Shown here piece after piece: positions 17,257 to 50,295 of a stretch of 64,000 bases of DNA. Location of the stretch: positions 394-64,393 of the forward strand of contig CAZYEL010000001.1 in assembly GCA_964646415.1 (NCBI GenBank), read 5' to 3'. Under the pieces are notes generated by a model. It did not search any database. It saw nothing but the letters and a program-made list of their open reading frames with translations, and had not been told where the DNA came from. The position numbers and the translations under genes are program-made. Within the stretch, counting starts at the first letter, position 1, and each line of letters opens with the position of its first letter. Origin of the DNA: an uncultured Candidatus Saccharibacteria bacterium (GTDB lineage Bacteria; Patescibacteriota; Minisyncoccia; UBA6257; 2-01-FULL-56-20).

Positions 17257-17330
17257 TGGTCGGCCTGGAAGGAATCGAACCTTCGTCAGACGTGTATAAG
17301 ACGTCGGCTTTACCATTAAGCTACAGGCCG
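17257..17330 (-). tRNA. tRNA-Ile(TAT) (anticodon UAU, AUA-reading); encoded CCA
   Basis: Reverse complement is CGGCCTG-TA-GCTT-AATGGTA-AAGC-C-GACGT-CTTATAC-ACGTC-TGAC-GAAGG-TTCGATT-CCTTC-CAGGCCG-ACCA. All four stems are Watson-Crick. Confidence 0.75.
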
Positions 17331-20176: not shown

Positions 20177-20222
20177 GGACTGGCGGGGCGAATCCTCACA
20201 GCTGACAGGCGCGCACGCGCAA

Positions 20223-20846: not shown

Positions 20847-20940
20847 ATGACAAATTCTAAACTCGAATGCTCCAAACTTTGGAATTTAGATATTCGTGTT
20901 TGGAATTTGTTTAGAGTTTCGTGTTTCGATATTCGGATTT
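20824..20940. repeat. AT-rich palindromic intergenic element (cargo-less member of the TTGGAATTT/GAAATCCGAATATCGAAA repeat family)
   Basis: Left arm 'tcgaaatcctaaacaaat' and right arm 'atttgtttagagtttcgtgtttcgatattcggattt' are inverted. The right arm reverse complement shares an exact 18-mer 'gaaatccgaatatcgaaa' with 39972..39989. Confidence 0.7.
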
Positions 20941-32756: not shown

Positions 32757-35468
32757 ATGGTTCCCAATATAAAGAAGCTCACTGCGGGGTTTCTCGTCTT
32801 TGCCGCGCTCGCGACGATGCTTTCTTTGGGATTCTCGACGCTTCTTTCATCATCCTCTTCGCAACCCACTCCCTCCGCGACCGCTTCCATAGAATCCCGC
32901 GCAGGGGAGAATGCGTTCATTCCGAAAGACCAGGCCGGAGCAACTTCCCTCGCGGATGGAACGATGCCCGTGCTGGGCGGCGCCCCCGCCGCATCCACAA
33001 ATCTTACGCTGCGCCTGGGAAGTCTTCTTGCGCAGGAGGTCATCCACACCAACGACACACTGGGGACCCTCAACGCTCCGCCCGCAGGACTTGTGGCCCC
33101 GAAAAAGAAAGAGCTCGAAACCGCGATTCAAACGAGTCTCGCAAACCTTTCCGAGGCGAGCACATTCCTCCCGCAATTCGACGAGCCCATAACAAACAAC
33201 GCCCTCACTATTCTCGCCGCGCCGCGCGCGGAGGATTTTTCGCGCTATACCGACGCCACCTCGCGTGCGCTTGAAGAAACCGTCGGGAGCGCAACTTTTG
33301 AAAAATTGCTCGCCGGGAAAGCAAGCCTTGAAACGGCGTACGCCGCAACCGCGATGTACGGCAACCTCACACAAACTCTTGCCCTGATCCCCGTTCCCCA
33401 GCCGCTCATAGGATTCCACAAGAGCGTCATTGCTGCGGTACGAAACCGTAAAACGCTCGTCGATGTGGCCTTGGGGGATTTCTCCGACCCGCTGAAATCA
33501 CTCGCCACAATCCAAAGCCTTGAAAGCCGCGTCGAAGAAATTCTCGACCGCGACGCCGAAAACATAGAACGGGAAGCGGCGCGCGTCCGCAGCATTTCAT
33601 TCGCTGCTCCCGCGGACACGCGGGACATCCTTGCAACCATTTTCGGCATTGAGCGCGCATTCGCACAGGGAGCGGAGGTCCCCGTGAAAGATAAGATGCT
33701 CACCACGACTGCGAAAAGCCTGACCGGGGAGCAAAAGAAGTCCAACGCGCAGAATTGGTTGCGGCGCCTCTGGGATTTCACCCAAAAAGTGCTTCTCCAG
33801 GAACTCAAGAACCAGATCATCGCCATGCTTGAACAGCAAATCGTGAATTGGATAAACGGCGGCGGCAAGCCCCAGTTCGTCACCGACTGGAAAGGGTTTA
33901 TCGGGGACGCCTTCAACAACGCCGCAGGCGCGGCGATTGACAAAATACTCCCCGAACTCTGCATGCCGCTGAACGCCCGGACCTATATCAACTTTACGCT
34001 CCGGCCCCCTCTCATTCCAGTCTACACCGGCTGTACGCTGAATCAGGTAATCAATAACGTGAAGAACTTTGCAAATGATTTCAGGAACGGCGGCTGGCTT
34101 CAATACAGCGTAACCATACAGCCCACCGGCAATTACTTCGGCGGCCTCATCGAAGCGCATGATGCGGGGCTCTTCGCGGGACTTGCGGGGTCCGACGCCG
34201 CAAAGAACAAGGCGCTTGCGGGAGCCGGCTTCCTGGGAAGCGAGATATGTCCCTCAACCGGCAAGCCGCCCGACGAAGAAGGTTCGCTCTACGGCTACCC
34301 CTGCCCGGGAAACGAACAACCAATCACCCGGACTCCGGGGAAAGTGCTGGGAGACACGCTCACCAAAGGACTCTCCTTGCCCTCCGAACTTATTGTGAAC
34401 GCGAACGACATCGCCGGGCTCGTCGCGGTGGTGACCGATGCCGCGCTCACGCGGCTCATGGCGGTGGGCCTTAGCGCCGCGGGGAAAGCAACCGGCAAAG
34501 GTTTGAGCGACGTCCCGCCGAGAACGGCAACAACCGCCACAAACGTAACCGCCGCGGCTGCAGCCCAAAAAGCCGCCGCAGACAACCCAATTGCCCCGCC
34601 CACGGAGAGCGACGTGCAGAACGAAGTTGCAAAGAGCGTGGAAGTTGGCGATGCTGGAAACGAAACGTTCCCTCCCGCAGAAGCATTGGCATCAAGAATT
34701 GACTTGTCGAATATTTGTCTTCTTTGCGCCACGCAAAGCTACACAGAACCCCGTAGTGACGGGAGTGGTCCCGCCAGAGCGGCGATTGACGGCTCCCTAA
34801 GCACATTCTCAAGCACCTTTGGCAGTTCTCCCGCGTCGTGGGAAGTAGCCCTCCCCATCCCTCAATACCTTGATGAAATCCAGGTCCAAACTAACGCGGG
34901 GTATCCCATGTCCAAGTCCGCAGGGAACAACGGGCCTCTGCTTGTGCTCTACGAAGCGGGAACAAGCCCCCTTCGCCGCTACACCATCACACTGCCCAAC
35001 GCGACGTACAGTCGACGGATAAACCTCACCACGGAACGGATGCGGGATGCGAACGGCAATGAAGTTGCGACCCCTCCGAACAAAATTGAGGTGGCAAAAG
35101 TACGATTTGAAGCAAGCCAACTCCTTCTTGCCGAAGTGGAACTTTTCCGCCATATGAGCCCTGAAGTGGATATCTCGAAGGTCCCGTCCACGCTTACCAA
35201 AGCGGCTGCGGCAAACCTTGACCCCTTGCAGTGGGTGAGCGCCATCGCCTACCCGGCGCACAATAGCGCTCCGCAGCCCGCGCCCTTGGCCGTCATCACG
35301 GTTACCATCACCGAGAACAAGGAGCGCGACGCGAGCAGGATGGAACCTCTTAGCCAAAGCCCGCTCCGCTATGGCCTCGCCCCGGGCTCCTATCGCTTCA
35401 TCTACACCGCCACAGTCGGGGGAGAAACAACCGCGCCGCGTACGCGCACCGTCACGGTAACCGAATGA
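32757..35468 (+). CDS. large secreted protein of unknown function; first gene of T4SS-like operon
   Basis: 903 aa with an N-terminal signal/TM helix and Thr/Ala/Pro-rich regions. Its stop overlaps the next gene start (ATGA). Confidence 0.5.
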   Translation: MVPNIKKLTAGFLVFAALATMLSLGFSTLLSSSSSQPTPSATASIESRAGENAFIPKDQAGATSLADGTMPVLGGAPAASTNLTLRLGSLLAQEVIHTNDTLGTLNAPPAGLVAPKKKELETAIQTSLANLSEASTFLPQFDEPITNNALTILAAPRAEDFSRYTDATSRALEETVGSATFEKLLAGKASLETAYAATAMYGNLTQTLALIPVPQPLIGFHKSVIAAVRNRKTLVDVALGDFSDPLKSLATIQSLESRVEEILDRDAENIEREAARVRSISFAAPADTRDILATIFGIERAFAQGAEVPVKDKMLTTTAKSLTGEQKKSNAQNWLRRLWDFTQKVLLQELKNQIIAMLEQQIVNWINGGGKPQFVTDWKGFIGDAFNNAAGAAIDKILPELCMPLNARTYINFTLRPPLIPVYTGCTLNQVINNVKNFANDFRNGGWLQYSVTIQPTGNYFGGLIEAHDAGLFAGLAGSDAAKNKALAGAGFLGSEICPSTGKPPDEEGSLYGYPCPGNEQPITRTPGKVLGDTLTKGLSLPSELIVNANDIAGLVAVVTDAALTRLMAVGLSAAGKATGKGLSDVPPRTATTATNVTAAAAAQKAAADNPIAPPTESDVQNEVAKSVEVGDAGNETFPPAEALASRIDLSNICLLCATQSYTEPRSDGSGPARAAIDGSLSTFSSTFGSSPASWEVALPIPQYLDEIQVQTNAGYPMSKSAGNNGPLLVLYEAGTSPLRRYTITLPNATYSRRINLTTERMRDANGNEVATPPNKIEVAKVRFEASQLLLAEVELFRHMSPEVDISKVPSTLTKAAAANLDPLQWVSAIAYPAHNSAPQPAPLAVITVTITENKERDASRMEPLSQSPLRYGLAPGSYRFIYTATVGGETTAPRTRTVTVTE

Positions 35469-37996
35469 TGAAAGGGATTCTCCATATGTTTCTCGAAAAG
35501 GCGCGCCGCATGCGCCGGTTTCTCTCCGCGCACCGCGTTGCCGCGGTAGCCGTTCTCTCTTTATCCGGTATTGCTCTTGCGCTTCCCCAAACCACGGAAG
35601 CGACGATATTCGGATGGATGGCGGGCGCAGTGGGAAGCGTAGTGGGAGATGTCGCCGGGTCGGCAATCGGCTGGGCCGCATTCACCCTTGGCTACATCAT
35701 TGCCATGCTTGTGGGAGCGCTCATAGGCGTTGCCGCCTATGGCATCAATGTCGTTCTCCAACTCAACACACACGTAGTGGATGCCATTGCGGTCCAGCAG
35801 GGGTTCAGGGTGACGCTCTCCCTCGCAAACCTCGGCTTCGTACTCGCGATTATCGTCATCGCCATTGCAACCATCGTCCGCTACGAATCCTACGGGATGA
35901 AGAAGGTGCTTTGGAAGCTTATTGTCGCCGCACTCCTCGTAAACTTCAGTCTCGTGATTGCCGGAAGCATCATCAATTTTTCGGACCAGCTCTCTGGTTC
36001 ATTTATCACGGCGTTCCCGGGGCAACAAACAGGCGGCACGATGCTTGATGATGCGGGCGCGAAAGTTGCCGGAATTCATAACTTCGCATCCGGCCTTGCA
36101 GGCGCCTTCAACCCTCAACGCAGCTGGACATTTGCCGCCCTGGGGAAAGCCGACTCCGGGGCGCAGGCGGCATCTGCGGGCGGGCAAGGACTCGGCAAGC
36201 TTTTTGTCCCCTTCATCCAACTCATATTTACGGCAGTCACATCGATTTTCATCCTTTTCGCGCTCCTCTCCCTCATCGTGCTCCTGATGATCCGCTACAT
36301 CTACCTCGGCATCCTCCTTATCCTCATGCCGCTCGCCTGGCTCCTCTGGATTTTCCCCCTGACCGAGAAAAACTGGAGTAAATGGTGGGGAAAATTCATA
36401 AAATGGACGTTCTTTGCCCCCATTACCCTCTTCTTCCTCTGGCTCGTCATGCTTACCTCCTCCGCGATGAGCAAGAGTGGGGGCGATGACCCTATTGGAG
36501 GCTTGAGCGGATTGGGATATGTGCCCGCAGGAGGGGAGGGCATCCTTGCGGAGATCGGGGCGCTCTTCGGCGGAGCCATCAATCAGATACTTGGCAGCTT
36601 CCTCCAGGCCACGATTCTCGTGGCGCTCACCATTGCCGGATTCTTTGCCGCGAATGCGCTGGCGCTCGAAACTTCGAAAGCCGCGCAAAAAGTGATGCAC
36701 GCAGCGAATAGCTATGTCGGGCGGCGCATGGGCCATTACGGCGGTCGCGCGATGAACCGACTCGGAGCGCAAAGACTTGCGACAGCCGCACAACGACAGG
36801 GCCTGAGCGGACTCCGTAATTTCAGCAGTAATATTGGCGGAAACAGCCACCCAATACTCCAAAAAATCCTTAAGCCCGTCAATTGGGGGGTTAATACGTT
36901 AGTAAGGGGAACAGGATACGCCGCTTCCATCGTCCCAGGGGGGAACTACCTTACACGAGCGATGGGCCGCGGGGCGCAGGCCGGGCTCACCGCAACAGGC
37001 GCTGGGATAGTGGACGAAGAGGCAAAGCACGTCAAAAAAGAAACCAAAGGGTACACCGGCGCACAGAAAGGCTCGATACTCGCGGGCATGAATCCCGATG
37101 CCCAAAAAGCCCTGCTCGAGGATATGCTGAAAAAGAAAGAGTTAAAGCACGCGCTTTGGCAGGAAAAATTATGGGCGCCCGATACTAAAGAAGAATGGGA
37201 GCGTGTCGGCAAAGGAGAGGTGTACGACAAGCTCAACGAAGCATTCCCGGGAGGGCATGAGCGGACAACGGTGGAAAGGGCGGCAAAGGTGTACGAAGAA
37301 GCCCAGAAAACCGCGAGAGCGAACGCCGAAAAGACTGTTGCGGCGACTTTCACGAAAGAGGAACTTGACAAGACGCCTGCAAAAGATAAGGAAGCGCTCA
37401 TCGCCCAAGAAACTGACGAGGAGATGAGGAAAATGCAGAACAATCCGGAGTCCCCACTCAATAAAGGCGTCGAAATGCTTGCCAAAGCCGCGGGGGACGC
37501 AACAGAGGTGCCACCCATGGAAAAACTCCTGCATATCGCGGAGGAACAGCTTCGCGTGACGAAGAAAAATGCAAAGACCGTCATCGGCTCCTTCTTCGGC
37601 GAGAAGCCCGTGCCTGGATACACTATGGCGGAAACAAAGGTGATGAGCCGCGTCTATGTAACCACGGTCGCCAACGCGAACCCCACAATGGTCCCGAACC
37701 TGATAGCAAACATGAACTTCGCGGAAACAACGCAATTCGGCGCCGAGTACGGGGGTTATCTGACGAGTGAGATAGACCGCCTCAAGAAATCGAACGCCAA
37801 CCCAGAGCGTCTTAAGAAATTCCAAAAGAGCCTCAAGGACCTTGAAAGAATCATCGCCCGGCAAGGTTTCTCCGAAGGACCGCAAGAAAAAGAGGAGGGG
37901 GAAGAAAAAGAGGAGGGGGGCGACGACCACGGCGAAGAGAGCATCCACGTCAGCCCAGCCATAGATACGAGCGGCGGCGAACGTCCTCACTCATAA
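35465..37996 (+). CDS. VirB6/TrbL-like polytopic inner-membrane protein with large hydrophilic C-terminal domain
   Basis: 843 aa. The first ~430 aa hold at least 7 hydrophobic helices with a TrbL/VirB6-like architecture. It is co-operonic with the VirB4 ATPase. Confidence 0.5.
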   Translation: MMKGILHMFLEKARRMRRFLSAHRVAAVAVLSLSGIALALPQTTEATIFGWMAGAVGSVVGDVAGSAIGWAAFTLGYIIAMLVGALIGVAAYGINVVLQLNTHVVDAIAVQQGFRVTLSLANLGFVLAIIVIAIATIVRYESYGMKKVLWKLIVAALLVNFSLVIAGSIINFSDQLSGSFITAFPGQQTGGTMLDDAGAKVAGIHNFASGLAGAFNPQRSWTFAALGKADSGAQAASAGGQGLGKLFVPFIQLIFTAVTSIFILFALLSLIVLLMIRYIYLGILLILMPLAWLLWIFPLTEKNWSKWWGKFIKWTFFAPITLFFLWLVMLTSSAMSKSGGDDPIGGLSGLGYVPAGGEGILAEIGALFGGAINQILGSFLQATILVALTIAGFFAANALALETSKAAQKVMHAANSYVGRRMGHYGGRAMNRLGAQRLATAAQRQGLSGLRNFSSNIGGNSHPILQKILKPVNWGVNTLVRGTGYAASIVPGGNYLTRAMGRGAQAGLTATGAGIVDEEAKHVKKETKGYTGAQKGSILAGMNPDAQKALLEDMLKKKELKHALWQEKLWAPDTKEEWERVGKGEVYDKLNEAFPGGHERTTVERAAKVYEEAQKTARANAEKTVAATFTKEELDKTPAKDKEALIAQETDEEMRKMQNNPESPLNKGVEMLAKAAGDATEVPPMEKLLHIAEEQLRVTKKNAKTVIGSFFGEKPVPGYTMAETKVMSRVYVTTVANANPTMVPNLIANMNFAETTQFGAEYGGYLTSEIDRLKKSNANPERLKKFQKSLKDLERIIARQGFSEGPQEKEEGEEKEEGGDDHGEESIHVSPAIDTSGGERPHS

Positions 37997-38002
37997 TCAT
38001 TC

Positions 38003-39397
38003 ATGAATCTCAAGCCCACCACAATTCAAAGAAAGCAGCTCGCGCAGCGCTGGGACATGCTCCCCATAAACCTCCGTGAGGCAATGACCGACGAGCGCAA
38101 TTCCGAAATCCTCTGGAAAGTATGCACCGACGAGCACCTCTCCGAGGAGAAAACGCGCGAAGTCGCCCGCATCGCCGCATGGGTAATGATGGGCTTCCTC
38201 CACCCTGCGGATGTCGCAAATGAAGTAAAGCTCTCCATCGGCATCCACCCCGAGCTTGCGGCGACGATTGCGAACACGCTGAACGCAAAACTCTTCGCGC
38301 CGATGCGGGAAGAGCTTGAGGGAACCTATGCTCCTCCGGGAACCGAGCCGCATTACCAGGAGCCCGCCGCAGCCGCCACGTTTGAAGACATCAGGCCCCC
38401 AGAAGCATTGGAACAAACGCTCGCGAACATCAGCAAGGGCGCTCCTGCCGAACCGTTCTTTAAAGAAACGCCCGTGTCTCTCGACTCTCTGAACGCCGGA
38501 CCTTCGGGCTCCCAAGACCAGGCCTTGTACACGCCGCCCGCGTCTCCATTTGACCTCTCCTCGTTCTCCCCCGAACCCCCTCCGGCGCCCCCCGCTCCCT
38601 CGCAAAGCTCAAACTTCTCCACTAAAGGTGGATCCGCCTCTGGCGGAGAAGCGCAAAGTTCTCCTTTCATCCTCCACGAGGAGCCCGCCGCGCCTTCGCT
38701 CCCGAACGCCGGGGATTTCTCTCTCGACATCACACCCGAAGAGTTCGGCCCCTCGCAACCGGAATTCGAGAATATCCCTCAAGCGAACATCGAAATCGGC
38801 GGTGGGGCTACCGCCCCCGCCGAAACGCGCGGACGGGACGCGGAACAACGCGGAACCGGAACACAGGAGCCTCGCACCGTCCACTACGGGGATTTGCGCA
38901 CACCGCTTTCCGCATCCACCAAGGTTGAACCTTTAGGGGATTCTCAAGGTTCAACCTTAGAAACTCTGTCCTCACCGCCAAAGGCGAGTTCTCCGGGCGA
39001 CGTATTGCGCTTCTCCGATTTTGGCAAAGAACCAGAGGTCCCGCCCGCGCCTCCCGCAAACGCACCCGAAGCGGATTTGCCTCCGCCGCCACGCAAAACT
39101 CCCTATCTCGCCAAGGAACAGAAAAAGCCGGGGTTCTTCGCGCGCTTTTTTGGGAAAAAGGAGACGAGCGCATCGCCCGCGCCCGAAGAGATATCTCTGC
39201 CGTTGCCTCCACCCCCTCCACCTTCGGCCCGCTTCACCAAAGCTTCAGCGGGGCGAGTCGCCAAAGGGACCTTCCCTACCGCCAAGCCTTTGCCTGTGAT
39301 ACCTCCATTTCCTGACATACCCCCCTCTCCGCCGCCTCAACCCTCCGCAACAAAGCCAAAGGACAATGATGTGATTGATTTAAGCTCTTTGAAGTAA
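38003..39397 (+). CDS. proline-rich acidic protein of unknown function (T4SS-like operon)
   Basis: 464 aa with a structured N-terminal ~120 aa followed by PPAPPAP/PPPPPP low-complexity sequence. Confidence 0.45.
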   Translation: MNLKPTTIQRKQLAQRWDMLPINLREAMTDERNSEILWKVCTDEHLSEEKTREVARIAAWVMMGFLHPADVANEVKLSIGIHPELAATIANTLNAKLFAPMREELEGTYAPPGTEPHYQEPAAAATFEDIRPPEALEQTLANISKGAPAEPFFKETPVSLDSLNAGPSGSQDQALYTPPASPFDLSSFSPEPPPAPPAPSQSSNFSTKGGSASGGEAQSSPFILHEEPAAPSLPNAGDFSLDITPEEFGPSQPEFENIPQANIEIGGGATAPAETRGRDAEQRGTGTQEPRTVHYGDLRTPLSASTKVEPLGDSQGSTLETLSSPPKASSPGDVLRFSDFGKEPEVPPAPPANAPEADLPPPPRKTPYLAKEQKKPGFFARFFGKKETSASPAPEEISLPLPPPPPPSARFTKASAGRVAKGTFPTAKPLPVIPPFPDIPPSPPPQPSATKPKDNDVIDLSSLK

Positions 39398-39446
39398 TTT
39401 CCAACTTCCTACTTACCGCTTAAAGCTAAAAGCTTAACGCTATCCT

Positions 39447-39959
39447 ATGCAATTCCAAATTCCCCAATTCGTGGAAACGGAAGATAAGATTGTGGGCCCC
39501 CTCACGCTCAAGCAATTCATCTACGTTGCCATCGCGGGCGGCATCTCGCTCCTTCTCTATTTCATAGTCCAGATATGGCTGTGGCTTATACTCTCCATTC
39601 CCATCATCGGAATCGGCGTCGGCTTTGCATTTATAAAAGTCGGGGGGAGGGCGCTCCCCGCGATCGCCCGAGCGGCATTCTCCTACGTGTGGAGGCCCCA
39701 AACCTACGTGTGGCAACCAGAGAAGGCTCCTGCGACAAGCGGCAAGGGGCAAGAGGCAAGAGGCGAAGAAAAATCTGCGAGGCTTTCACTCGAAGAAGTC
39801 CTTTCGGGCTTCGCGCTCCGCCGGACATGGCAAAGACTCCAAACCGGCGCCAGCAAGGTTTCCCCGGGAATTTTCCTAGGCAAGTCCCAAGACCGCTACG
39901 CCATCTACCGCAAGCGCAGCGGGGAATTGGGAGCGGCGAGAAGAGTGGATTATAGGTAA
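39447..39959 (+). CDS. small 2-TM membrane protein, VirB3/PrgI-like candidate
   Basis: 170 aa. 'MQFQIPQFVETEDKIVGPLTLKQFIYVAIAGG' is followed by two hydrophobic helices, and the gene sits directly upstream of VirB4. It contains a degenerate heptad repeat at 39732..39768. Confidence 0.35.
   Translation: MQFQIPQFVETEDKIVGPLTLKQFIYVAIAGGISLLLYFIVQIWLWLILSIPIIGIGVGFAFIKVGGRALPAIARAAFSYVWRPQTYVWQPEKAPATSGKGQEARGEEKSARLSLEEVLSGFALRRTWQRLQTGASKVSPGIFLGKSQDRYAIYRKRSGELGAARRVDYR
39732..39768. repeat. degenerate heptanucleotide repeat (GNGRCRA)5 related to the gyrA/uvrD GCGACAA repeat
   Basis: 'gcgacaa gcggcaa ggggcaa gaggcaa gaggcga ag'. Confidence 0.6.
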
Positions 39960-39967
39960 TAGGAGAA

Positions 39968-40030
39968 GCACGAAATCCGAATATCGAAATCCTAAACAAA
40001 TCCGAATGAGCCAAATTCCAAATTCCAAAG
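39968..40030. repeat. upstream inverted-repeat arm of four-helix-bundle gene cassette (TTGGAATTT family)
   Basis: 'gcacgaaatccgaatatcgaaatcctaaacaaatccgaatgagccaaattccaaattccaaagg'. Shares the 'aatatcgaa ...(23-24 nt)... aaattccaa' layout with the reverse complement of 40381..40452 and an 18-mer with 20824..20940. Confidence 0.65.
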
Positions 40031-40380
40031 GGAAAACGTACGACCTCGAAGAGCGGGCGCTTCTGTTCACCAAACGAACAGCCCGATATGTAAATAAACT
40101 TCCGAAGACCATACCGAACGTAGAAAGCGGCAAGCAGCCTATGAGAGCTAGCGGTTCCGTCGGGGCAAACTACATTGAAGCGAATGAGTGTTTGGGCAAG
40201 AAAGACTTTGCAATGAAGATCAAAACATCAAAAAAGGAGGCGAAGGAAGCTAGATACTGGCTCGCAATCACCGAACCTGCGCCCGAGGAAGAAAAAGAGA
40301 AAGAGGCGCTTTCTCAAGAAGCTACAGAACTCATGAAGATCTTCGGGTCAATTCTCGAAAAGACGAAATGGGCGGTATAA
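40006..40380 (+). CDS. four-helix-bundle protein (23S rRNA intervening-sequence protein / TIGR02436 / Avd-like family)
   Basis: 124 aa. 'YDLEERALLFTKRTARYVNKLP...ASGSVGANYIEANE...SKKEAKEARYWL' matches the family signature. Confidence 0.6.
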   Translation: MSQIPNSKGKTYDLEERALLFTKRTARYVNKLPKTIPNVESGKQPMRASGSVGANYIEANECLGKKDFAMKIKTSKKEAKEARYWLAITEPAPEEEKEKEALSQEATELMKIFGSILEKTKWAV

Positions 40381-40452
40381 TGGGCTTGAAACTTCGTGCT
40401 TGGAATTTAGTAATTGTTTCGTGTTTTGATATTCGATATTAGAAATTTTCAC
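40381..40452. repeat. downstream inverted-repeat arm of the four-helix-bundle gene cassette
   Basis: 'tgggcttgaaacttcgtgcttggaatttagtaattgtttcgtgttttgatattcgatattagaaattttcacg'. Confidence 0.6.
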
Positions 40453-40455
40453 GCT

Positions 40456-41127
40456 ATGCCCAAAGAATTCGCCAACGCACAAGACCTCGTCGCGGTAAAA
40501 GAAATCCGGGAGGGGACGCTGCTCCTCAAAGACGGCAGTTTCCGGCAGGTACTTATGGTAAACGGCGTCAATTTCGCGCTGCGCTCGGAAGTGGAACAGA
40601 ACACCATCACCGCTTCCTACCAGAATTTTTTGAACACGCTCGATTTCCCGCTCCAGATTATCATCCATTCCCGCAAAATAAACATTGATAAATACCTTGA
40701 AAAACTCGCCGCGTGCGAGCAAGCGGAATCCACGCCAATCCTCCGCAGCCAGAATGCGGAATACCGGGAGTTTATCAGGGGGTTCGTGGAAAAAAACGCC
40801 ATTATGGAAAAAATATTTTTTGCGGTTGTCCCTTGGGTAACCGTATCTCTTCCCACCACGAAAAGCCTTATGCGGTTCATTCCGTTCCTGGGGCGGAGCA
40901 AAACCGCCGATGATGCCGAGGCAAAAGAGAAAGAAGAGTCATTTGAGGAATCCCTGGAGCAGCTCAAGCAGCGCGTTTCCCAAGTCGTTGAAGGGCTCGC
41001 CTCCGTCGGCCTTGAAGCAGTTCCCCTCGGCAACCGGGAGCTCGCCGAGATGCTCTATAACTTTTACAATCCCGAGTCCGTCGAGCGGGAAAATATCAAT
41101 TTGCCCGCCGAAGGCGCAAAGAACTAG
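40456..41127 (+). CDS. VirB4/TrbE-family N-terminal domain (separate ORF ending at in-frame TAG)
   Basis: 'LLKDGSFRQVLMVNGVNFALRSEVEQNTITASYQNFLNTLDFPLQIIIHSRK' aligns with the VirB4 N-terminus 'LLEDGSIMSIARIDGVAFELEE...RAFNTLFRNI...'. It is in the same frame as the 41140 ORF. Confidence 0.55.
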   Translation: MPKEFANAQDLVAVKEIREGTLLLKDGSFRQVLMVNGVNFALRSEVEQNTITASYQNFLNTLDFPLQIIIHSRKINIDKYLEKLAACEQAESTPILRSQNAEYREFIRGFVEKNAIMEKIFFAVVPWVTVSLPTTKSLMRFIPFLGRSKTADDAEAKEKEESFEESLEQLKQRVSQVVEGLASVGLEAVPLGNRELAEMLYNFYNPESVERENINLPAEGAKN

Positions 41128-41139
41128 AAATATATTTCT

Positions 41140-42873
41140 ATGTCAGACCCCGGAATTCCCGACATCTCAAAAATCATAGCCCCCGCAGGCGCGGAAGTGA
41201 CTCCAAACTATCTGAAGTTGGGCAACAAGCTCGCGAAAACATTCTTTGTGCTTTCCTACCCGCGCTATCTCACAACCGGATGGTTTGAGCCAATCGTAAA
41301 CTTGCCCAGCCTTCTCGATGTTTCCATTTTCATCAACCCCATGGACACGGGGGATGCCCTGAAAAATCTCCGGAAAAAGGCGGCGCAGCTTGAATCGCAA
41401 ATCTCGGACACGGAGGAAAAGGGGCTCGTCCGCGACCCGCTCCTTGAAACCGCCCTGCGCGATGTGGAATCCCTACGCGACACGCTCCAACAATCGGAAG
41501 AGAAACTCTTCAACGTCGCGCTCTATATCGCAATTTACGCCGATACCCCCGATGAACTCGCCCGGCTCGAGGGGCAAATCATTTCGCTCATGGAAGCAAA
41601 GCTGGTTTATATCAAGCCTGCGCTCTTTGAACAACTTGAAGCGTTGCTCTCCGTGTTCCCCTTCGGGAACGACCGCATCCGCATCGGCACCTCGATGAAC
41701 TCGAGTCCCATTTCCTCATTCTTCCCGTTTGTGTCCGAAGACCTCACCTCAAACGAAGGAATTATGTACGGCATCAACCGCCACAACAACAGTCTTGTCG
41801 TCTTCGACAGGTTTTCGCTTGAGAACGCAAATCAGGTAGTATTCGCCAAATCGGGTTCCGGAAAATCATACTCCACGAAACTCGAAATCATCAGGTCGCT
41901 CATGGTGGGCACCGAAATCATCGTGATTGACCCGGAGAATGAATACCAGCGGCTCGCCGAAGCTTTGGGCGGAAGCTTCTTCAATATTTCGCTTTCATCC
42001 GAGGAGCACATCAACCCCTTCGACATCCCCATCATCCCGGATGGAGAATCGCCTTCGGACATTCTCCGGTCGCACATCGTGAACCTCGCAAGTCTGGTGA
42101 AACTCATGCTCGGGAAAATCACGCCCGAGGAAGATTCGCTCCTCGACCGCGCGATTACCGAAACCTACGCCTCGCGCGAGATTGTGGCGGGAGAAGATTT
42201 CTCCGGCAAAGAAGCCCCGCTTCTTGAGGACCTTGAAACCGTGCTCCGGAACCTTGAGGGCGGCCGCGCGATGGCGGAGCGCCTTTATAAATACACGAAG
42301 GGTTCCTTCGCGGGATTCGTGGACCAACACACCAACATCGACATCAACAACCGCTTCATTGTCTTTTCCATCCGCGACCTCGAAGAAGAGCTTCGCCCCA
42401 TCGCGATGTTCGTCATTCTAAACTTCATCTGGAATCTTATCCGCGCACGCCTCAAGCGCCGCGTTCTCATCATTGATGAGGCGTGGATTATGATGAAAAA
42501 CGAGGATTCCGCCACCTTCCTCTTCGGACTTGTGAAACGCGCCAGAAAATATTATCTCGGCGTCTCCACCATCACGCAGGACGTCGAGGACTTCCTCCGC
42601 TCCCCGTACGGCAGGCCCATTATTACCAACTCTTCGCTTCAGTTGCTCCTTAAACAAGCACCCGCTACGATTGACGTCGTTGCAAAAGCGTTTGACCTCA
42701 CTGAAGCGGAGAAAGGGCTCCTCCTCGGCGCCGAAGTGGGCATGGGGCTTTTCTTCGCCGGGAAAAAGCATGTGGCAATCCAGATTGTCGCATCCTATTT
42801 CGAAGACCAGATCGTTACCACCAATCCTCAAGCGCTTCTCAACGAGAAAAGCGAGAAAGAAGGAGCGAAATAA
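41140..42873 (+). CDS. virB4: VirB4/TrbE/CagE-family T4SS ATPase (C-terminal ATPase portion)
   Basis: Walker A 'VFAKSGSGKSYSTKLEI', Walker B 'RRVLIIDEAWIMM' and the motif 'GVSTITQD'. Confidence 0.85.
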   Translation: MSDPGIPDISKIIAPAGAEVTPNYLKLGNKLAKTFFVLSYPRYLTTGWFEPIVNLPSLLDVSIFINPMDTGDALKNLRKKAAQLESQISDTEEKGLVRDPLLETALRDVESLRDTLQQSEEKLFNVALYIAIYADTPDELARLEGQIISLMEAKLVYIKPALFEQLEALLSVFPFGNDRIRIGTSMNSSPISSFFPFVSEDLTSNEGIMYGINRHNNSLVVFDRFSLENANQVVFAKSGSGKSYSTKLEIIRSLMVGTEIIVIDPENEYQRLAEALGGSFFNISLSSEEHINPFDIPIIPDGESPSDILRSHIVNLASLVKLMLGKITPEEDSLLDRAITETYASREIVAGEDFSGKEAPLLEDLETVLRNLEGGRAMAERLYKYTKGSFAGFVDQHTNIDINNRFIVFSIRDLEEELRPIAMFVILNFIWNLIRARLKRRVLIIDEAWIMMKNEDSATFLFGLVKRARKYYLGVSTITQDVEDFLRSPYGRPIITNSSLQLLLKQAPATIDVVAKAFDLTEAEKGLLLGAEVGMGLFFAGKKHVAIQIVASYFEDQIVTTNPQALLNEKSEKEGAK

Positions 42874-43650
42874 ATGGATGAAGAAGAGGGAAAACACAGC
42901 AAGATAGATTATTTCGGTCCGGGGATTGTTATGGCGTTTATCGCTGCGTTCGCGGGAGACCTTTTCTGGCTTCTGGTAATCGGGGCGTTCATCCCCCCGC
43001 CGCCTATAGGGCTCACGTTTCTTGCAGCAGGACTCCTCGCCCACTACCTCGCAGGGATGATGGTGGGCGGGTTCATTTTCTTTGAGTTGAAGCATTTCGT
43101 GCCTAAGGCTATTTTAGGAGCCGCGATACTTTTACCATTGCCGTTGCTTATGGTGGGTATGGGCATTGCGCTTATTGCCCAAAACCGGATTATAGAGATC
43201 CTGCTCATCCAAGCAGGGACGAAGCTGCTTGAGGCGGGTCTTGCCGCAACGGGTGTGGGGGCACTCGCGGCGGGAGCGGTTGAAGTGGCGGCGGACGCGA
43301 AAACCGTGCAGACTGTCGCCAGAGGCGCCAAAGCAGCCACCACAGTAGGGAAGGGTGGTCGTGCTGCAGAAACAACGGCGCAACGGGCAAAGCGCATCGC
43401 AAACCGCCTACAGCGGTACGCACCACAAGGTGGAGGAGGGGAGGAGGGATATGAAGACGAAGAGGAGGATGAGGGAGATGTGCCGGAAGAAGCATTTGGG
43501 GTGCAGAGAGGGCCCGTCGAAGAGCTCCAACAATCAACCATGGAAGAACTCCCACAAGTCGAAGAGGAACCAAAAGAAAGCGACGAGTCGGGAGAGGAAG
43601 AAAAAAAGCCCCCGCGGCTTGAGGACATACGCAAACCGGATAGTTTATAA
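42874..43650 (+). CDS. polytopic membrane protein with acidic C-terminal tail (T4SS-like operon)
   Basis: 258 aa with 4 predicted TM helices followed by an E/D-rich tail. Its start overlaps the virB4 stop (TAAATG). Confidence 0.45.
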   Translation: MDEEEGKHSKIDYFGPGIVMAFIAAFAGDLFWLLVIGAFIPPPPIGLTFLAAGLLAHYLAGMMVGGFIFFELKHFVPKAILGAAILLPLPLLMVGMGIALIAQNRIIEILLIQAGTKLLEAGLAATGVGALAAGAVEVAADAKTVQTVARGAKAATTVGKGGRAAETTAQRAKRIANRLQRYAPQGGGGEEGYEDEEEDEGDVPEEAFGVQRGPVEELQQSTMEELPQVEEEPKESDESGEEEKKPPRLEDIRKPDSL

Positions 43651-43657
43651 TTACTTT

Positions 43658-44377
43658 ATGGCGCGAATTTCTAAAAAAGCAGTGCGTGGGGCACTCGCCG
43701 TCGTAATACTCGGGGTGGGATACGGGTGGGCACTGTTGCTCGCACATGCCGCCACGCCGCCGCAGATAGTCATAAGCTGGCGCGCAGATACCTACACTCC
43801 TCCGGGCTATGCGGGTAAGGCGCTCCCCACCTCAAACTCCGTAATCGCGGCGTCTTTGGATATCCTTGCAAACAACAAGGGCACCGACCTTTCGGGGCAG
43901 CTTATCTATTGGTACGTAAACAACCGCCTTGCGGGAAGCGGGAAGGGGAGAACTTCAATAACATTCCGCGCACCTTCTGCCGCGCCGGACACTCTTGCGC
44001 TCCGCGTAGAAGTGCCTGGATACCCTGGTGGCGCCATAATCAAATCAATCAATATCCCCGTGGTGGTCCCCGAATCGGTGATTGTCGCTCCGCTCCCGCT
44101 CTTGCGCTTCACCCCGCCCTCCACAACGCTCACGGGGGCTCCTTACTTTTTTAATGTGCGCGACCCCCTCCTCCTCAAATTCGAGTGGGGAGCGAACTAC
44201 ACAGCCCTGCCTGCCGGACAAACCGATAACGCGCCGAAAGGCGACCCGCGCGTGCTCACACTCAACCTCAATCCCGACGCGCCCAAAGGCGCGCCGGTGC
44301 GCGTAACGCTCGGCATTACCAACCCATTAAGAGAGGCCGAGGGGGCACAATCATTTATTACGCTCACAACCCAATGA
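43658..44377 (+). CDS. secreted protein of unknown function (T4SS-like operon)
   Basis: 239 aa with a signal peptide 'AVRGALAVVILGVGYGWALLLAHAA'. Its stop overlaps the next start (ATGA). Confidence 0.45.
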   Translation: MARISKKAVRGALAVVILGVGYGWALLLAHAATPPQIVISWRADTYTPPGYAGKALPTSNSVIAASLDILANNKGTDLSGQLIYWYVNNRLAGSGKGRTSITFRAPSAAPDTLALRVEVPGYPGGAIIKSINIPVVVPESVIVAPLPLLRFTPPSTTLTGAPYFFNVRDPLLLKFEWGANYTALPAGQTDNAPKGDPRVLTLNLNPDAPKGAPVRVTLGITNPLREAEGAQSFITLTTQ

Positions 44378-45441
44378 TGCGGCGCATGCTCAATGCCATC
44401 TCGGCCATTCTGGGCTTCTGCCTCACGAGCGGAGTTGTCTTCGCAGTCACCATAAACACCAATCTCCCCGGCACCAATCCCACCGTAAACAACCCGGGCG
44501 GCTGGGTTGCCAACTTCTACCAATTCGCCCTTCTCCTCGGAGGACTCCTCGCCTTCGGCGCGATTGTCTACGGAGGAATGACGTATACGCTCTCGGCGGG
44601 GAATCCCGAAAAGCAGAGTGATGCGAAAAGCAGGATTACGCAGGCGCTCCTCGGGCTCACGCTCCTCCTCGGCGCCTACATCGTATTGAATTTCTTGAAT
44701 CCCAAACTCACCAATCTCCAGATTGACACGTACGGGCTCACGGCGGCCTGCCAGGGGACTTCGTGTGAAAACCCAGTTCCCCTCGACAAAGACGCTATGC
44801 AAAAAGCGCTGGATGCGGGCCTTGATACATACCTTGCGGAACGCGCCGAACAAGTCCGGGGAAAGGCCGCGGATCTCGACGCAGATGCAGATGAGTTAGA
44901 GGCAGAGGCGGACTTCGCCGCGACCTCGGTAGAAAGCGATGTCCTCATTGAAATGGCGAACGAACGGCGAGCACGGGCGGAACTCATGCGCCGGGAAGAA
45001 AGCGTCAGCGAATATTTTTACAAGACCACGGCAGCGGAGCAGACCAACAATGTAGAGGAAATAAAAAGACTCACAGGAGTGATGAACGCCTCTCTCGACT
45101 CAGGCATACAAGAGTTGAAAAGACTAGGGGACAATGCGGGAGCAGAGACGCTCGCGATCAAAAAATTCACCCACAACGTTTACTTTGACGCCCAGAAAGC
45201 TGCTGCCACAGTGCAGGCAGCCTTCCCAAATAAAGCCGGCCCTTTTGATACTATTGATACTGCAAAAGCTCGGGAGGCAGCGACTAATGCCGTAAAAGAC
45301 ATCGGGAAAAGAGTGCGAGAAGAGGCCAAAAGACTTGGGAATAACGTCCAAGACCCGAGTGTCAGCGAAGTATTTCGGTGGGGCGCGGCGGCAACTGAAA
45401 AGATACGGGACGCATGCGCCGCTAAAAATATTAAGTGCTGA
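44374..45441 (+). CDS. pilin-like (VirB2/TrbC-like N-terminus) protein with long coiled-coil C-terminal domain
   Basis: A signal peptide followed by two hydrophobic helices ('FYQFALLLGGLLAFGAIVYGG', 'ALLGLTLLLGAYIVLNFL'), as in T4SS pilins. The C-terminal 240 aa are a charged coiled-coil. Confidence 0.35.
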   Translation: MMRRMLNAISAILGFCLTSGVVFAVTINTNLPGTNPTVNNPGGWVANFYQFALLLGGLLAFGAIVYGGMTYTLSAGNPEKQSDAKSRITQALLGLTLLLGAYIVLNFLNPKLTNLQIDTYGLTAACQGTSCENPVPLDKDAMQKALDAGLDTYLAERAEQVRGKAADLDADADELEAEADFAATSVESDVLIEMANERRARAELMRREESVSEYFYKTTAAEQTNNVEEIKRLTGVMNASLDSGIQELKRLGDNAGAETLAIKKFTHNVYFDAQKAAATVQAAFPNKAGPFDTIDTAKAREAATNAVKDIGKRVREEAKRLGNNVQDPSVSEVFRWGAAATEKIRDACAAKNIKC

Positions 45442-45454
45442 AGCTGCTACTACG

Positions 45455-46684
45455 ATGAAACGTTTTCTCTACCTCTTCATTATCCTCGCGGCCATCGGCC
45501 TCGTGGTCGCCGCCGGGTTTTTTCTGCAGTACCGCAGCGAGCCCGCCCCGCAGCAACCGGAGGCGCAGCCCGCGGGGGATACTCTCCCCATAGCGCCCTC
45601 CCCATCATTTGAAGCTCCGCCCGCCGCACAAGACGAGCCCGCCGCCACAAACCTTCCCGAACCCGTCTTTCTTGGCAATGGCCTGCGCGTCCTCTCGCCG
45701 CGCCCAACATACGCCTTCGCAGTCCGCACGGACGGCAGCTTGCTCCTCGCGAGCCCCGACGGCACCATTTCCGAGTTGCGGGGCGCCACGCTCAATACGC
45801 TGAGCCCCACCGTCATCGCGGATATCCAAACAATCTCCTTCTCATTCGATGCATCCAAAATCCTCGCCGTCTTCGGCGACCGGAGCGAGCCCCAAGTCGC
45901 TCTCTTTGATGTGAAGTCAAAAACATGGCAACCGTTTCCCGCCGCCGCAACAAGCGCCGCGTGGTCCCCGAACGACCTCCGCGTGGCATATCTTTCGCAA
46001 AAAAGCGGGGCGGTGTCGCTCAACACTTTGAACATCGCCGACGCCAAAGCGAAGCCCCAGGAGCTCACTCGCGTTCGCTTCGCCGACGTGACCCTCGCGT
46101 GGAACAACCCTGACCAGATTCTCCTTCAGGAACGCGCAAGCGGCTTGGTGCCGACCTCGGCGTGGAACTGGGATACTAAGAAGAAAGCTCTCGTTTTGTT
46201 TGCCGAGGACCAGCGCGGTTTCGAAACCCGATGGGCTCCGGGCGCGGCGAATGGCCTTGCGTTCGTCGCGGGGGAGAGAGGCTATGGAGGCTCCTTCCTC
46301 CTCGTTTCACCCCAAGGGGACGTGCGCGAAACTTTCTCTTTCCTCACTTTCCCAGAAAAATGCGCGTTTGGCAGTATGCCGATACCCGCAGAATTGCGCT
46401 CCTCAAGCACCCCTTCGGGCGCAACGATTATAAATTCATTACGCTGCGCAGTCCCCCGAGACAGCACCGCGCTTGCGTCGGTAATTCTTCCTGATACCTA
46501 CCGCAAACGCGCCATATTTACCGTCGACGACTTCTATGAAATCGACCTTGCGACCGGCGCCACCCGCACCATACTTGCGGACCCCGGGCAAACCCTCGAC
46601 GCAATGAAGGTTGCCGCATCCGGCGACATGCTCTACTTCGTAAACCGCTACGACCAAAAGCTTTACTCGCTCCAAATAAAATAA
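45455..46684 (+). CDS. secreted beta-rich protein of unknown function (last gene of T4SS-like operon)
   Basis: 410 aa with a signal peptide/TM 'FLYLFIILAAIGLVVAAGFF', a Pro-rich linker and a repetitive beta-strand-like C-terminus. Confidence 0.4.
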   Translation: MKRFLYLFIILAAIGLVVAAGFFLQYRSEPAPQQPEAQPAGDTLPIAPSPSFEAPPAAQDEPAATNLPEPVFLGNGLRVLSPRPTYAFAVRTDGSLLLASPDGTISELRGATLNTLSPTVIADIQTISFSFDASKILAVFGDRSEPQVALFDVKSKTWQPFPAAATSAAWSPNDLRVAYLSQKSGAVSLNTLNIADAKAKPQELTRVRFADVTLAWNNPDQILLQERASGLVPTSAWNWDTKKKALVLFAEDQRGFETRWAPGAANGLAFVAGERGYGGSFLLVSPQGDVRETFSFLTFPEKCAFGSMPIPAELRSSSTPSGATIINSLRCAVPRDSTALASVILPDTYRKRAIFTVDDFYEIDLATGATRTILADPGQTLDAMKVAASGDMLYFVNRYDQKLYSLQIK

Positions 46685-46748: not shown

Positions 46749-47186
46749 TTAGCGATTACTCCCCATGGGTTTTACTATCACATACCGATCTTTCCCTTCT
46801 CCCACGCTCTCGGTGGTTACCTCCGGATGCACGGCAAGCGCCATGTGCACAATCCGCCGCTCGTATGAATTCATCGCGGGAAGAGACACTTCGGCTTTCG
46901 TGGTGTGTACTTTCTTCGCGGCCGCTTTGGCGAGCTCCGCAATCAAGTTCTCCCGCTCCTGCCGGTAGTTGTTAATATCAAAGACCACCGCCGGCGCATC
47001 GTGCTTTTTCCCCACAAGCTGCACGACGTGATTCACGCTCGCCACAAGTATTGGAAGGATTTCCTTGATAAGCGCCTCATCCTCATAAATAAAAACGGTG
47101 CCTCGGTTTTCTTCCTTCACTTCAACATGGAAGTCGCGGAAGCCCATCCGCTCAAAAAGTTGTTGTACAAAAGTTTGGAAATTCAT
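46749..47186 (-). CDS. jag: Jag/KhpB-family RNA-binding protein (KH + R3H)
   Basis: R3H motif 'MNSYERRIVHMALA'. Conserved position downstream of yidC. Confidence 0.8.
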   Translation of the reverse strand: MNFQTFVQQLFERMGFRDFHVEVKEENRGTVFIYEDEALIKEILPILVASVNHVVQLVGKKHDAPAVVFDINNYRQERENLIAELAKAAAKKVHTTKAEVSLPAMNSYERRIVHMALAVHPEVTTESVGEGKDRYVIVKPMGSNR

Positions 47187-47304
47187 CCCGTTAGAAGCAG
47201 GCCGCGGTTTTCCCGCTTTGCTGATAATTGTGACTAATAATCATAATTTGGTAACTTTTTGAACTAATCGCATCTCGTCAAGCGACTGCGGCTTCTAACG
47301 GGGT

Positions 47305-48015
47305 TCATGTCTGTTGGTGTGCGAGCTGCCGATTCACAATGAGCTGCTGCACGATTGAGAATATCGAGCTCACCGCCCAGTACAAGCTCACTGCGGCGGG
47401 GAACTGCCAGAAAACAAAGAGCGTGATAAGCGGTGCGATAAACATCATGTTCCGCCCCATCCGCTCGGCGTCACTCAACGCCTCTCCTTCCCTGCGCTTG
47501 GGGAGCGCCAGGCGCCCTTGTATATATTGGGCGAATGCCGCCAAACCCACCATGAAGATACTCTGCTCGCTTAGATTAATCAAGCCGAGGAAGCTCGGGT
47601 TGAGTGCTTCCGGCGCATGCACAAAAGCGTATATCGCCTTGGCAACTTCCTGGGGATTTAAGATGCCGGAGAACACCTGGTAGAGCGCGATCAAGACCGG
47701 CAGCTGTACGAGGAGTAAAAGGAATCCGGAAAAAGGATTGATGCGGTGCGAGCGGTAGAGTTCCATCATCGCTTTCGCCTGCCGTTCGCGATCTTTCGGA
47801 TGCTGCTCCTGGATTTTTTTCATCTCCGGCTGCAACCGCTGCATCACCGCCTGGTGCCGTACGCTTTTATGAAACAACGGGAAAAGAATGACCCGGATGA
47901 CAATGGTGAGAAATATGATCGCAAGCCCTAGGTCTTGGAAGGCGAGGGTGTTGTACAACGCCACAAGCGCATTCAGGAGCGGCTGATAGAAAAAAGTGTC
48001 GTAAAGATATCCCAT
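47305..48015 (-). CDS. yidC: membrane protein insertase YidC (short form)
   Basis: 236 aa with 5 TM helices and 'IIFLTIVIRVILFPL'. Position rnpA-yidC-jag. Confidence 0.85.
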   Translation of the reverse strand: MGYLYDTFFYQPLLNALVALYNTLAFQDLGLAIIFLTIVIRVILFPLFHKSVRHQAVMQRLQPEMKKIQEQHPKDRERQAKAMMELYRSHRINPFSGFLLLLVQLPVLIALYQVFSGILNPQEVAKAIYAFVHAPEALNPSFLGLINLSEQSIFMVGLAAFAQYIQGRLALPKRREGEALSDAERMGRNMMFIAPLITLFVFWQFPAAVSLYWAVSSIFSIVQQLIVNRQLAHQQT

Positions 48016-48035
48016 GTATAGCTAGCTTTTCAGCT

Positions 48036-48371
48036 TTAAGGTTTGGGGGTTAGTGCGAAAACTTTCTCCCGGACATGATCGAGTTCCGCGCGGAATTCCT
48101 GGCGCGAAAGCCGGGCGGCGGGGCGGGAAAGAATAAACACGAAGTCCGAAGGCAAACCTTTCCATTGCCGCACGTGCGCGAGCAGCACTCTCTTCAATAC
48201 GTGTCGGCGGACGGCGCGGGAGTCCACGCTCGTGCTTATCACCGCCCCAAACCGATTATGCGAGAGAAAATTACTCCTTGCTTTCACCGCCATAATGGAA
48301 GAGGCGTAGACGATCGGCATGCGCGAGCGCATAAGCGATGGGAGGGGAGCTCGTAGCCGCCTCGGGAGCAT
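48036..48371 (-). CDS. rnpA: ribonuclease P protein component
   Basis: 'FGAVISTSVDSRAVRRHVLKRVL' is the RnpA RNR-like motif. It lies between rpmH and yidC. Confidence 0.75.
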   Translation of the reverse strand: MLPRRLRAPLPSLMRSRMPIVYASSIMAVKARSNFLSHNRFGAVISTSVDSRAVRRHVLKRVLLAHVRQWKGLPSDFVFILSRPAARLSRQEFRAELDHVREKVFALTPKP

Positions 48372-48389
48372 CAGCGGAGCGCCTGCCTT

Positions 48390-48524
48390 CTACACGGCGA
48401 GGCGCCGCCGCTTCTTAAGGCGCCGACGACGCAACACTGCCCTTCCTCCCGGCCTCCGCTGTCGCGCAAGGAAACCGTGCGTACGGGCCCGCTTCTTCTT
48501 TTTCGGCTGGTAGGTCCGAGACAT
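48390..48524 (-). CDS. rpmH: 50S ribosomal protein L34 (44 aa; below ORF-track cutoff)
   Basis: Manual translation gives [44 protein letters not shown], the L34 consensus (TxQP...RxHGFxxR...GRxVLxxRRxKGRKxL). Confidence 0.8.
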
Positions 48525-48789
48525 TGCCCTATACTATCATGAGCCGCGCTTTCTGCCAACCCCTCGCCGGTCAGAAAACGCGATATGCACAGAAAGTCCC
48601 CAAACCTCCCCCCGGTCCCTTTTGACGACTCTCTGTTTCTCCATACAATTAACCACATCAGCCGCTTCTCCTCCCTCCTACGCTCATGCGGCTCTTCCAA
48701 AATATTCCGCGCATTGTCTGCCGCATCCATTTTGCCTTTCTTTCACCAATGAAAAAACAAAAAGTCGCGATTGCGCATCTTCTCGTACG

Positions 48790-50151: not shown

Positions 50152-50295
50152 TACACACCTCATCCACACAAACCTTTTCTTTCATCCTTTATCTTCTATA
50201 CATTATCAGCACTTATCCCCATATCCACAGGACTAACAGTATCAACAGTAACAATAATCTTATTCAATTAATCTAATACTACTCTACTTACTACT
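50152..50295. other. oriC candidate (DnaA-box cluster plus AT-rich unwinding element) in dnaA-dnaN spacer
   Basis: TCATCCACA (50160-50168), TTATCCCCA (50213-50221) and ATATCCACA (50221-50229) are each 8/9 matches to TTATCCACA. TTATCAGCA and GTATCAACA are 7/9. An AT-rich 'aataatcttattcaattaatctaatact' follows. Confidence 0.55.

Follow-up and report, generated by a model that had tools for sequence, protein, structure and literature searches.

A probable two-gene VirB4 in a Candidatus Liptonbacteria genome, at a type IV secretion locus near the replication origin

The DNA analyzed here, which we refer to as the window, is a stretch of 64,000 nucleotides (nt) of a metagenome-assembled genome (MAG) belonging to the Patescibacteria (NCBI assembly GCA_964646415.1, contig CAZYEL010000001.1, positions 394 to 64,393). 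It contains a type IV secretion system (T4SS) locus in which the sequence matching the ATPase VirB4 is divided over two open reading frames (ORFs). These ORFs lie in the same frame and are separated by a TAG codon and a short spacer that form part of a perfect palindrome. An earlier note, based on the sequence alone, had listed four options for this junction: a natural two-polypeptide VirB4, a recent nonsense mutation, a stop-codon readthrough site or a sequencing error. Our analyses lead us to conclude, with high confidence, that the two ORFs, 40456-41127 and 41140-42873, are genuine genes lying side by side in the origin-proximal T4SS locus of a member of Candidatus Liptonbacteria (Patescibacteria), and that the TAG at 41125 is the stop codon of the first gene. 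The two genes and the element between them are as follows.

40456-41127, + strand: stand-alone VirB4 N-terminal-domain protein, TrsD-like, Pfam TraC-like, 223 amino acids (aa), stop codon TAG; assigned by profiles, fold and homologues
41125-41140, either strand: perfect 16-nt A/T-rich palindrome TAGAAATATATTTCTA, its own reverse complement, running from the stop codon through the 12-nt spacer to the first letter of the ATG
41140-42873, + strand: VirB4-family T4SS ATPase without the N-terminal domain, 577 aa; assigned by NF045971, the Walker motifs and PDB entry 4ag5

In the window, the junction reads ...GCAAAGAAC TAG AAA TAT ATT TCT ATG TCA GAC..., and the codons AAG AAC precede the TAG. The TAG occupies positions 41125-41127 and is followed by the 12-nt spacer, which is A/T except for one G and one C, and by the ATG at 41140. 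The TAG-to-ATG distance of 15 nt places both ORFs in one frame with four sense codons between them; the chance of a shared frame is 1 in 3. The letters of the window therefore agree with the description in the earlier note (TAG at 41125, shared frame, four codons and a perfect 16-nt palindrome). The note had also regarded TAG as a true stop in ftsH, uvrD and glyA, and codon reassignment as unlikely. Indeed, TAG terminates 16 of the 47 long ORFs in the window, among which are conserved housekeeping genes (the FtsH, SHMT/GlyA and UvrD homologues), and reassignment of this codon was rejected on these grounds.

Perfect palindromes of at least 16 nt occur four times in the window, where about 1.7 are expected under a first-order Markov model. 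A palindrome at the junction is therefore uncommon but not remarkable, above all in a spacer that is almost purely A/T. The RNA hairpin that it can form has a predicted energy of -1.6 kcal/mol, and equally good folds were obtained in 13 of 200 shuffled sequences. Within a context of 46 nt, the predicted structure was not above that of shuffled sequence (z = +0.51).

Next, we analyzed the downstream ORF. Its product scores 385.5 bits (E 4.8e-115) against NF045971, the CD1110-family VirB4 model, which passes the curated cutoff of 325, and it covers positions 189-734 of the 752 in that model. Neither ORF covers NF045971 in full, positions 2-105 being matched by the separate upstream ORF. The nucleotide-binding motifs are intact, with the Walker A sequence AKSGSGKSY and the Walker B sequence RRVLIIDEAW. 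Pfam matches were obtained for P-loop_TraG, AAA_10 and DUF87, and the crystallized C-terminal domain of VirB4 (PDB 4ag5) is matched with an E value of 3e-44. The product and its counterpart in the closest relative (locus L081) share the same first 15 residues, MSDPGIPDISKIIAP. Among the 120 best homologues, 117 are 567-591 aa long; the others are two fused proteins (792-793 aa) and one protein of 651 aa.

The upstream ORF was initially delimited mechanically from a TTG at 40414. Because the N-terminus encoded from the ATG at 40456, MPKEFANAQDLV, is conserved in relatives, this ATG was taken as the best start. The 223-aa product matches exclusively N-terminal positions of two NCBIfam VirB4 models (2-105 of the CD1110 family and 19-179 of TIGR00929), and positions 102-193 of the mycoplasma VirB4 model. 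Its match to the TrsD/TraD model NF041427 spans model positions 17-93 of 201, with an E value of 7.6e-7 and 29.1 bits; as the curated cutoff is 200 bits, the protein falls outside strict TrsD/TraD membership. It does have the size and position of such proteins, which are about 200 aa long and are encoded immediately upstream of a VirB4-type ATPase: it is 223 aa long and its gene ends 12 nt from that of the ATPase, and 77 related loci show the same arrangement. The precomputed Pfam matches for the exact protein place it in PF26593 (TraC-like) at E <= 1e-5 and include a weak match to PF27097 (VirB4_TrbE_N). With the local copy of Pfam, the sole match was to TraC_F_IV, at 21 bits and below the cutoff.

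No PDB entry was matched by the sequence of the upstream protein, but its fold could be compared. The AlphaFold2 model (pLDDT 86.3, pTM 0.75) was used for a Foldseek search of the PDB, in which the top 14 matches were all chains of R388 TrwK/VirB4 (probability 0.99-1.00), aligned over about 210-220 columns with TM-scores (query) of 0.35-0.53. The predicted structure superposes on the N-terminal domain of TrwK. The 120 best homologues of the protein are all stand-alone, with lengths of 215-254 aa and identities of 52-92%. An exhaustive HMMER search covered 1.84 billion cluster representatives; of its 150 best matches, 149 were not full-length VirB4, down to an identity of 32%. Because the profile and fold matches of the two ORFs are complementary, together they correspond to one VirB4 that is broken between the N-terminal domain and the remainder, the second gene supplying the middle region and the RecA-like ATPase domain.

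We then analyzed how the two halves are arranged in related genomes. Both halves were located in 80 loci from different GTDB species and in three nearer relatives. Of the related loci with both halves (n = 81), 77 are split and four are fused. This strongly supports the first option of the earlier note, a natural two-polypeptide VirB4, as do the selection and assembly data presented below. The gaps between the halves in the 77 split loci range from -29 to +505 nt, and in 46 of them the gap is at most 15 nt (18 overlaps, of the ATGA type and of -8 nt, and 28 gaps of 0-15 nt), which is how translationally coupled gene pairs are expected to look. The relative frames 0, 1 and 2 are found in 16, 28 and 33 of these loci, respectively, making the in-frame arrangement the least common. 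The stop codon of the first gene is TAA in 49 cases, TGA in 20 and TAG in eight. The junctions of the close relatives differ as follows.

L081: TAA followed by a 152-nt repeat-rich spacer, out of frame
L095: TAA followed by 54 nt
L084 and L085: gaps of 2 nt
L096: a 399-nt four-helix-bundle gene between the halves
L093 and L094: one fused 812-aa ORF with a 22-aa linker rich in Pro, Asn and Gln; identity to the window proteins 80% (N-terminal part) and 91% (C-terminal part)

Judging from these cases, the junction is a fast-evolving site, which in close relatives carries a repeat-rich spacer or an inserted four-helix-bundle gene, or has closed into a fused gene. The palindrome was searched for in 86 loci of other genomes and no copies were found; it was seen exclusively in six assemblies of the same strain. 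The shared frame and the palindrome are thus probably incidental, one-strain features of a hypervariable spacer. The emphasis that the earlier note had placed on the in-frame TAG and the palindrome proved to be misplaced, as neither is found in any related genome, the closest included. The alignment of orthologues that it had proposed as a check had two outcomes, in that the split is nearly uniform and the palindrome is not shared. Uniformly fused orthologues lacking the palindrome would, according to the note, have spoken against its reading; the lack of the palindrome was indeed observed, but the orthologues are almost uniformly split.

The fused forms are informative with respect to the history of the split. 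In a neighbour-joining tree of the ATPase domains, they form small clades nested among the split forms (L042/L043/L046; L022; P0130/P0133/P0156). A further fused case, P0397 (812 aa; L093:3001-5439 and L094:2101-4539), falls within the window's own 90% cluster, and P0133 and P0156 are fused proteins of 792-793 aa. The linkers of the fused proteins are 12-30 aa long and are placed exactly where the window has its stop codon and spacer. The split, which falls in a short variable linker between the conserved motifs ...FYNPE... and ...IAPAG..YLK.., looks ancestral for the clade, with at least four secondary fusions, because the fused clades nest among split ones. The arrangement in the window is one point mutation away from a fusion, and nothing points to the window junction serving as one.

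Both halves are conserved as separate genes. Between the window and L081, protein identity is 92.8% for the N-terminal protein and 95.7% for the ATPase, and the ratio of nonsynonymous to synonymous substitution rates (dN/dS), at dS values of 0.75-1.05, amounts to 0.044 (small gene) and 0.038 (ATPase gene). Ratios of about 0.04 for each gene indicate strong purifying selection on both and, with the intact Walker motifs, speak for two functional genes. In addition, the NCBI MAG GCA_016190325.1 and five SRA runs that were assembled separately all contain the 23-nt junction AACTAGAAATATATTTCTATGTC without change; an assembly error is very unlikely because the same junction is present in six independent assemblies. 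The exact proteins are available under the accessions MBI2888769.1 and MBI2888768.1, which derive from a Candidatus Liptonbacteria MAG, and the NCBI annotation treats them as two separate proteins.

On the basis of these results, the following model can be proposed for the two genes. They would be co-transcribed, since the 12-nt spacer contains no terminator; a consensus scan of 39300-43800 detected neither a promoter nor a terminator at the junction. The ATPase could be translated through termination-reinitiation (translational coupling), with ribosomes reinitiating 12 nt after the stop codon. Alternatively, initiation may take place de novo at the ATG, where the sequence is A/T-rich, predicted to be unstructured and without a Shine-Dalgarno (SD) motif. 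A start without this motif is normal for this genome, because SD-like motifs are rare, being present upstream of nine of the 47 long ORFs in the window. The two polypeptides would then associate non-covalently to rebuild a VirB4 unit in which, by analogy with R388 TrwK, the N-terminal domain may contact VirB3/PrgI at the membrane and the C-terminal domain may form the ATPase ring.

Several points weigh against interpreting the two ORFs as a functional VirB4 pair. The co-transcription and coupling of the genes and the physical association of their products are what we infer. The name TrsD for the upstream protein is a remote-homology label, its score being far under the NCBIfam cutoff (29 versus 200 bits), and its model matches the N-terminal domain of TrwK to a moderate degree (TM about 0.5, Foldseek E about 3e-3). 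Moreover, it is somewhat unusual that a perfect 16-nt palindrome is placed exactly on the junction.

The other options of the earlier note were weighed against the same data. The source is metagenome-assembled, and A/T-rich low-complexity stretches can be error-prone, so that a false stop made by sequencing or assembly has to be considered. However, the junction is the same in six contigs that were assembled independently from different runs, and relatives end their first gene at the homologous place; we give this option practically no credence. A recent nonsense mutation in an ancestrally fused VirB4 that is undergoing pseudogenization would account for the in-frame layout with a single stop, which resembles a point mutation, and for the existence of some fused relatives. 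It is extremely improbable given that the stand-alone state is common to 77 of 81 loci and persists down to about 32% identity, that the fused forms nest in small clades among split ones, and that the downstream ORF starts at the same conserved ATG (MSDPGIPDISK) as the split relative. Furthermore, a pseudogene should show relaxed selection or a stop unique to its lineage, and instead dN/dS is about 0.04 for both halves and the clade as a whole has a stop at the homologous position of the linker. Programmed or leaky readthrough of the TAG, by which some ribosomes would produce an 805-aa fused VirB4 beside the two separate proteins, fits the four sense codons that separate the in-frame ORFs, and the existence of naturally fused relatives shows that this exact position tolerates a covalent linker. 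Against this, relatives do not keep the frame (it is shared in 16 of the 77 split pairs, where chance alone would give one third), the 152-nt spacer of the closest relative puts its halves out of frame, and the type of stop codon varies. In addition, a stable structure downstream of the stop was not found, the sole local hairpin being negligible and containing the stop codon itself, no suppressor tRNA is present among the six tRNAs of the window, and TAG is a regular terminator of its long ORFs. Readthrough is therefore highly improbable.

A different explanation is that the palindrome, or the heptamer TAGAAAT within it, is a strain-specific regulatory element, either an internal -10-type promoter from which virB4 would be transcribed with almost no leader or an operator to which a dimeric DNA-binding protein would bind; such an element would add to the two-gene arrangement. 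The heptamer has 14 copies in the window, of which at least seven are intergenic, and it is enriched in intergenic DNA. Several copies are found just before start codons or genes; their sites are listed below together with others.

41125-41131, + strand: TAGAAAT, 8 nt before the ATG of the ATPase gene
40440-40446, + strand: TAGAAAT, 9 nt before the ATG (40456) of the TrsD-like gene
TAGAAAT sites on the + strand: 40440, 41125, 57362 and 62962
TAGAAAT sites on the - strand: 15349, 17339, 54745 and 54770

Copies are also located 6 nt before the RuvC start and 8 nt before the tRNA-Ile gene (17330, minus strand), the latter with a TTGAAA sequence at a spacing of 17 nt upstream. In the spacers of the close relatives L081, L096 and L095, runs of TTAGAAAT/TTAGAAT are present just before the virB4 ATG. 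On sequence grounds, TAGAAAT at start codons may be a -10-type element, and its placement, together with the scarcity of SD motifs, would point to a -10-type box and to a genome in which many transcripts are leaderless or nearly so. If TAGAAAT is a -10 motif, then one half of the palindrome is the motif and the other half is due to chance. The excess of long palindromes over expectation (4 versus 1.7) also favours a regulatory element. However, the promoter scan was silent at the junction, where a convincing -35 sequence is lacking, and the palindrome is present in no related genome. Moreover, many relatives have overlapping genes or junctions of 1-5 nt, which leave no room for a promoter, and A/T-rich spacers easily yield short palindromes by chance. 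We consider a regulatory role of this kind unlikely. More speculatively, the TAG and its 12-nt A/T palindrome could in this one strain be a working switch, acting through low-level readthrough or as an internal promoter or operator, that tunes the ratio of N-terminal domain to ATPase or gives both the split and the fused form. The strain could then represent an intermediate stage, still in existence, of the repeated splitting and joining that VirB4 shows across Patescibacteria; we regard this as quite improbable.

The tRNA-Ile gene (17257-17330, minus strand) itself encodes its TAT anticodon in the DNA. Many other bacteria decode AUA with a CAT tRNA that is modified with lysidine. With respect to palindromes, the window also contains three that are G+C-rich, perfect and 20-26 nt long (3503-3522, 20163-20188 and 56240-56259), and at least one of these (20163-20188) spans the position, 20176, at which the minus-strand ORF 18914-20176 has its start codon.

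As two adjacent genes encoding an N-terminal-domain protein and an ATPase, the window pair is a plain instance of an arrangement that is already known. Quinonero-Coronel et al. (Microb Genom 2025, PMC12102498) report that, of all T4SS components, TrsD was recovered most often in Patescibacteria, with 2,272 homologues that are remotely homologous to the N-terminus of VirB4. According to the same article, 1,664 of these copies are associated with virB4, TrsD is essential in Ca. Southlakia epibionticum, and the T4SS locus of Patescibacteria is often near the replication origin. Compared with the TrsD-VirB4 pairs as described there, the window is alike in having a small N-domain gene beside virB4, PrgI/VirB3, a VirB2-like pilin and proximity to the origin, with no essential difference; the in-frame stop and the palindrome are peculiar to the window strain. 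In the searched text of that article, the word "split" is absent and "fused" is used just for VirB3-VirB4; the pair is not presented there as a split VirB4, and re-fused variants go unmentioned.

The prototype of the pair is TrsD/TrsE of the staphylococcal plasmid pGO1. In the pGO1/pSK41 plasmids (MPF_FATA, pGO1 subclass), TrsD/TraD and TrsE/TraE likewise consist of a VirB4-N-related protein of about 200 aa encoded upstream of a VirB4-like ATPase. Unlike these Firmicutes plasmids, the host of the window locus is the chromosome of an ultra-small epibiont lineage, and the locus has a pilin gene and, in the part examined, no relaxase was noted. Full-length VirB4 proteins, such as R388 TrwK (PDB 7o41 and 8rtd) and those of the CD1110 family of Gram-positive integrative and conjugative elements, are covered completely by the two window ORFs taken jointly, but the window protein consists of two polypeptides that are broken in the inter-domain linker. 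The re-fused VirB4 proteins of relatives (P0397, P0133/P0156, L022, L042, L043 and L046) are encoded by one ORF, having a linker where the window has TAG and 12 nt; these loci have the same organization as the window, with the identities of 80% (N) and 91% (C) given above for P0397 (L093 and L094).

That VirB4 has changed repeatedly between the split and the fused state in close relatives is the sole point that is mildly new, and a modest one. The N-terminal domain apparently need not be joined covalently, given that the split state is the dominant one and that re-fusion has taken place in at least four small lineages. The result is chiefly useful for annotation: stand-alone TrsD-like genes beside a short virB4 in Patescibacteria should not be flagged as a pseudogene, a frameshift or a recoding site. 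In addition, the inter-domain linker of VirB4 is a natural break point, which could guide domain dissection of VirB4 and of the essential T4SS of epibiotic Patescibacteria.

The genes surrounding the pair are in line with a T4SS locus. The following were assigned in its vicinity.

39447-39959, + strand: PrgI/VirB3-like small membrane protein; Pfam PF12666, E 2.8e-8, 34.6 bits against a cutoff of 27; at the same place in relatives
40006-40380, + strand: four-helix-bundle protein of the 23S rRNA IVS protein family, bAvd-like; Pfam PF05635, TIGR02436
44374-45441, + strand: T4SS pilin-domain protein, VirB2-like; Pfam PF18895, E 2.1e-8, 34.5 bits against a cutoff of 26.6
48622-50151: dnaA
50296-51405: dnaN

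The genes jag (R3H), yidC, dnaA and dnaN are located directly downstream of the T4SS locus (46749-51405), and because they adjoin it, the secretion system is taken to be chromosomal and origin-proximal. The locus thus combines the features of Patescibacteria T4SS loci, namely VirB4 with TrsD, PrgI/VirB3, a VirB2-like pilin and a position near the origin. Genes for VirB6-like and VirB8-like proteins were not identified, the neighbouring large ORFs having no Pfam matches. The large flanking ORFs (32757-39397, 42874-44377 and 45335-46684), which encode proteins of 903, 843, 464, 258, 340 and 449 aa, matched neither Pfam nor NCBIfam models. By position, they are candidates for VirB6-like, VirB8-like and other lineage-specific T4SS components.

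In the window and in L081, L085, L093 and L095, the four-helix-bundle gene follows prgI and precedes the TrsD-like gene. It is missing from L084, and in L096 (929-1327) it is placed between the TrsD-like gene and virB4. We considered whether the bAvd-like ORF marks a diversity-generating retroelement that targets T4SS genes. This idea was dropped, as a search for direct repeats gave short intergenic repeats and no template/variable pair; a reverse transcriptase was not searched for. From its distribution, the four-helix-bundle gene behaves like a movable passenger of the operon, separate from the VirB4 split. Its flanks (39971-40001 and 40393-40435) are A/T-rich, reading CGAAATCCTAAACAAAT... 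and ...TTGGAATTTAG...TTAGAAATTAGATATTAGAAT, and they recur without the gene at 20818-20935 of the window and as the trsD-virB4 spacer in L081 (6676-6830) and L095 (1888-1945).

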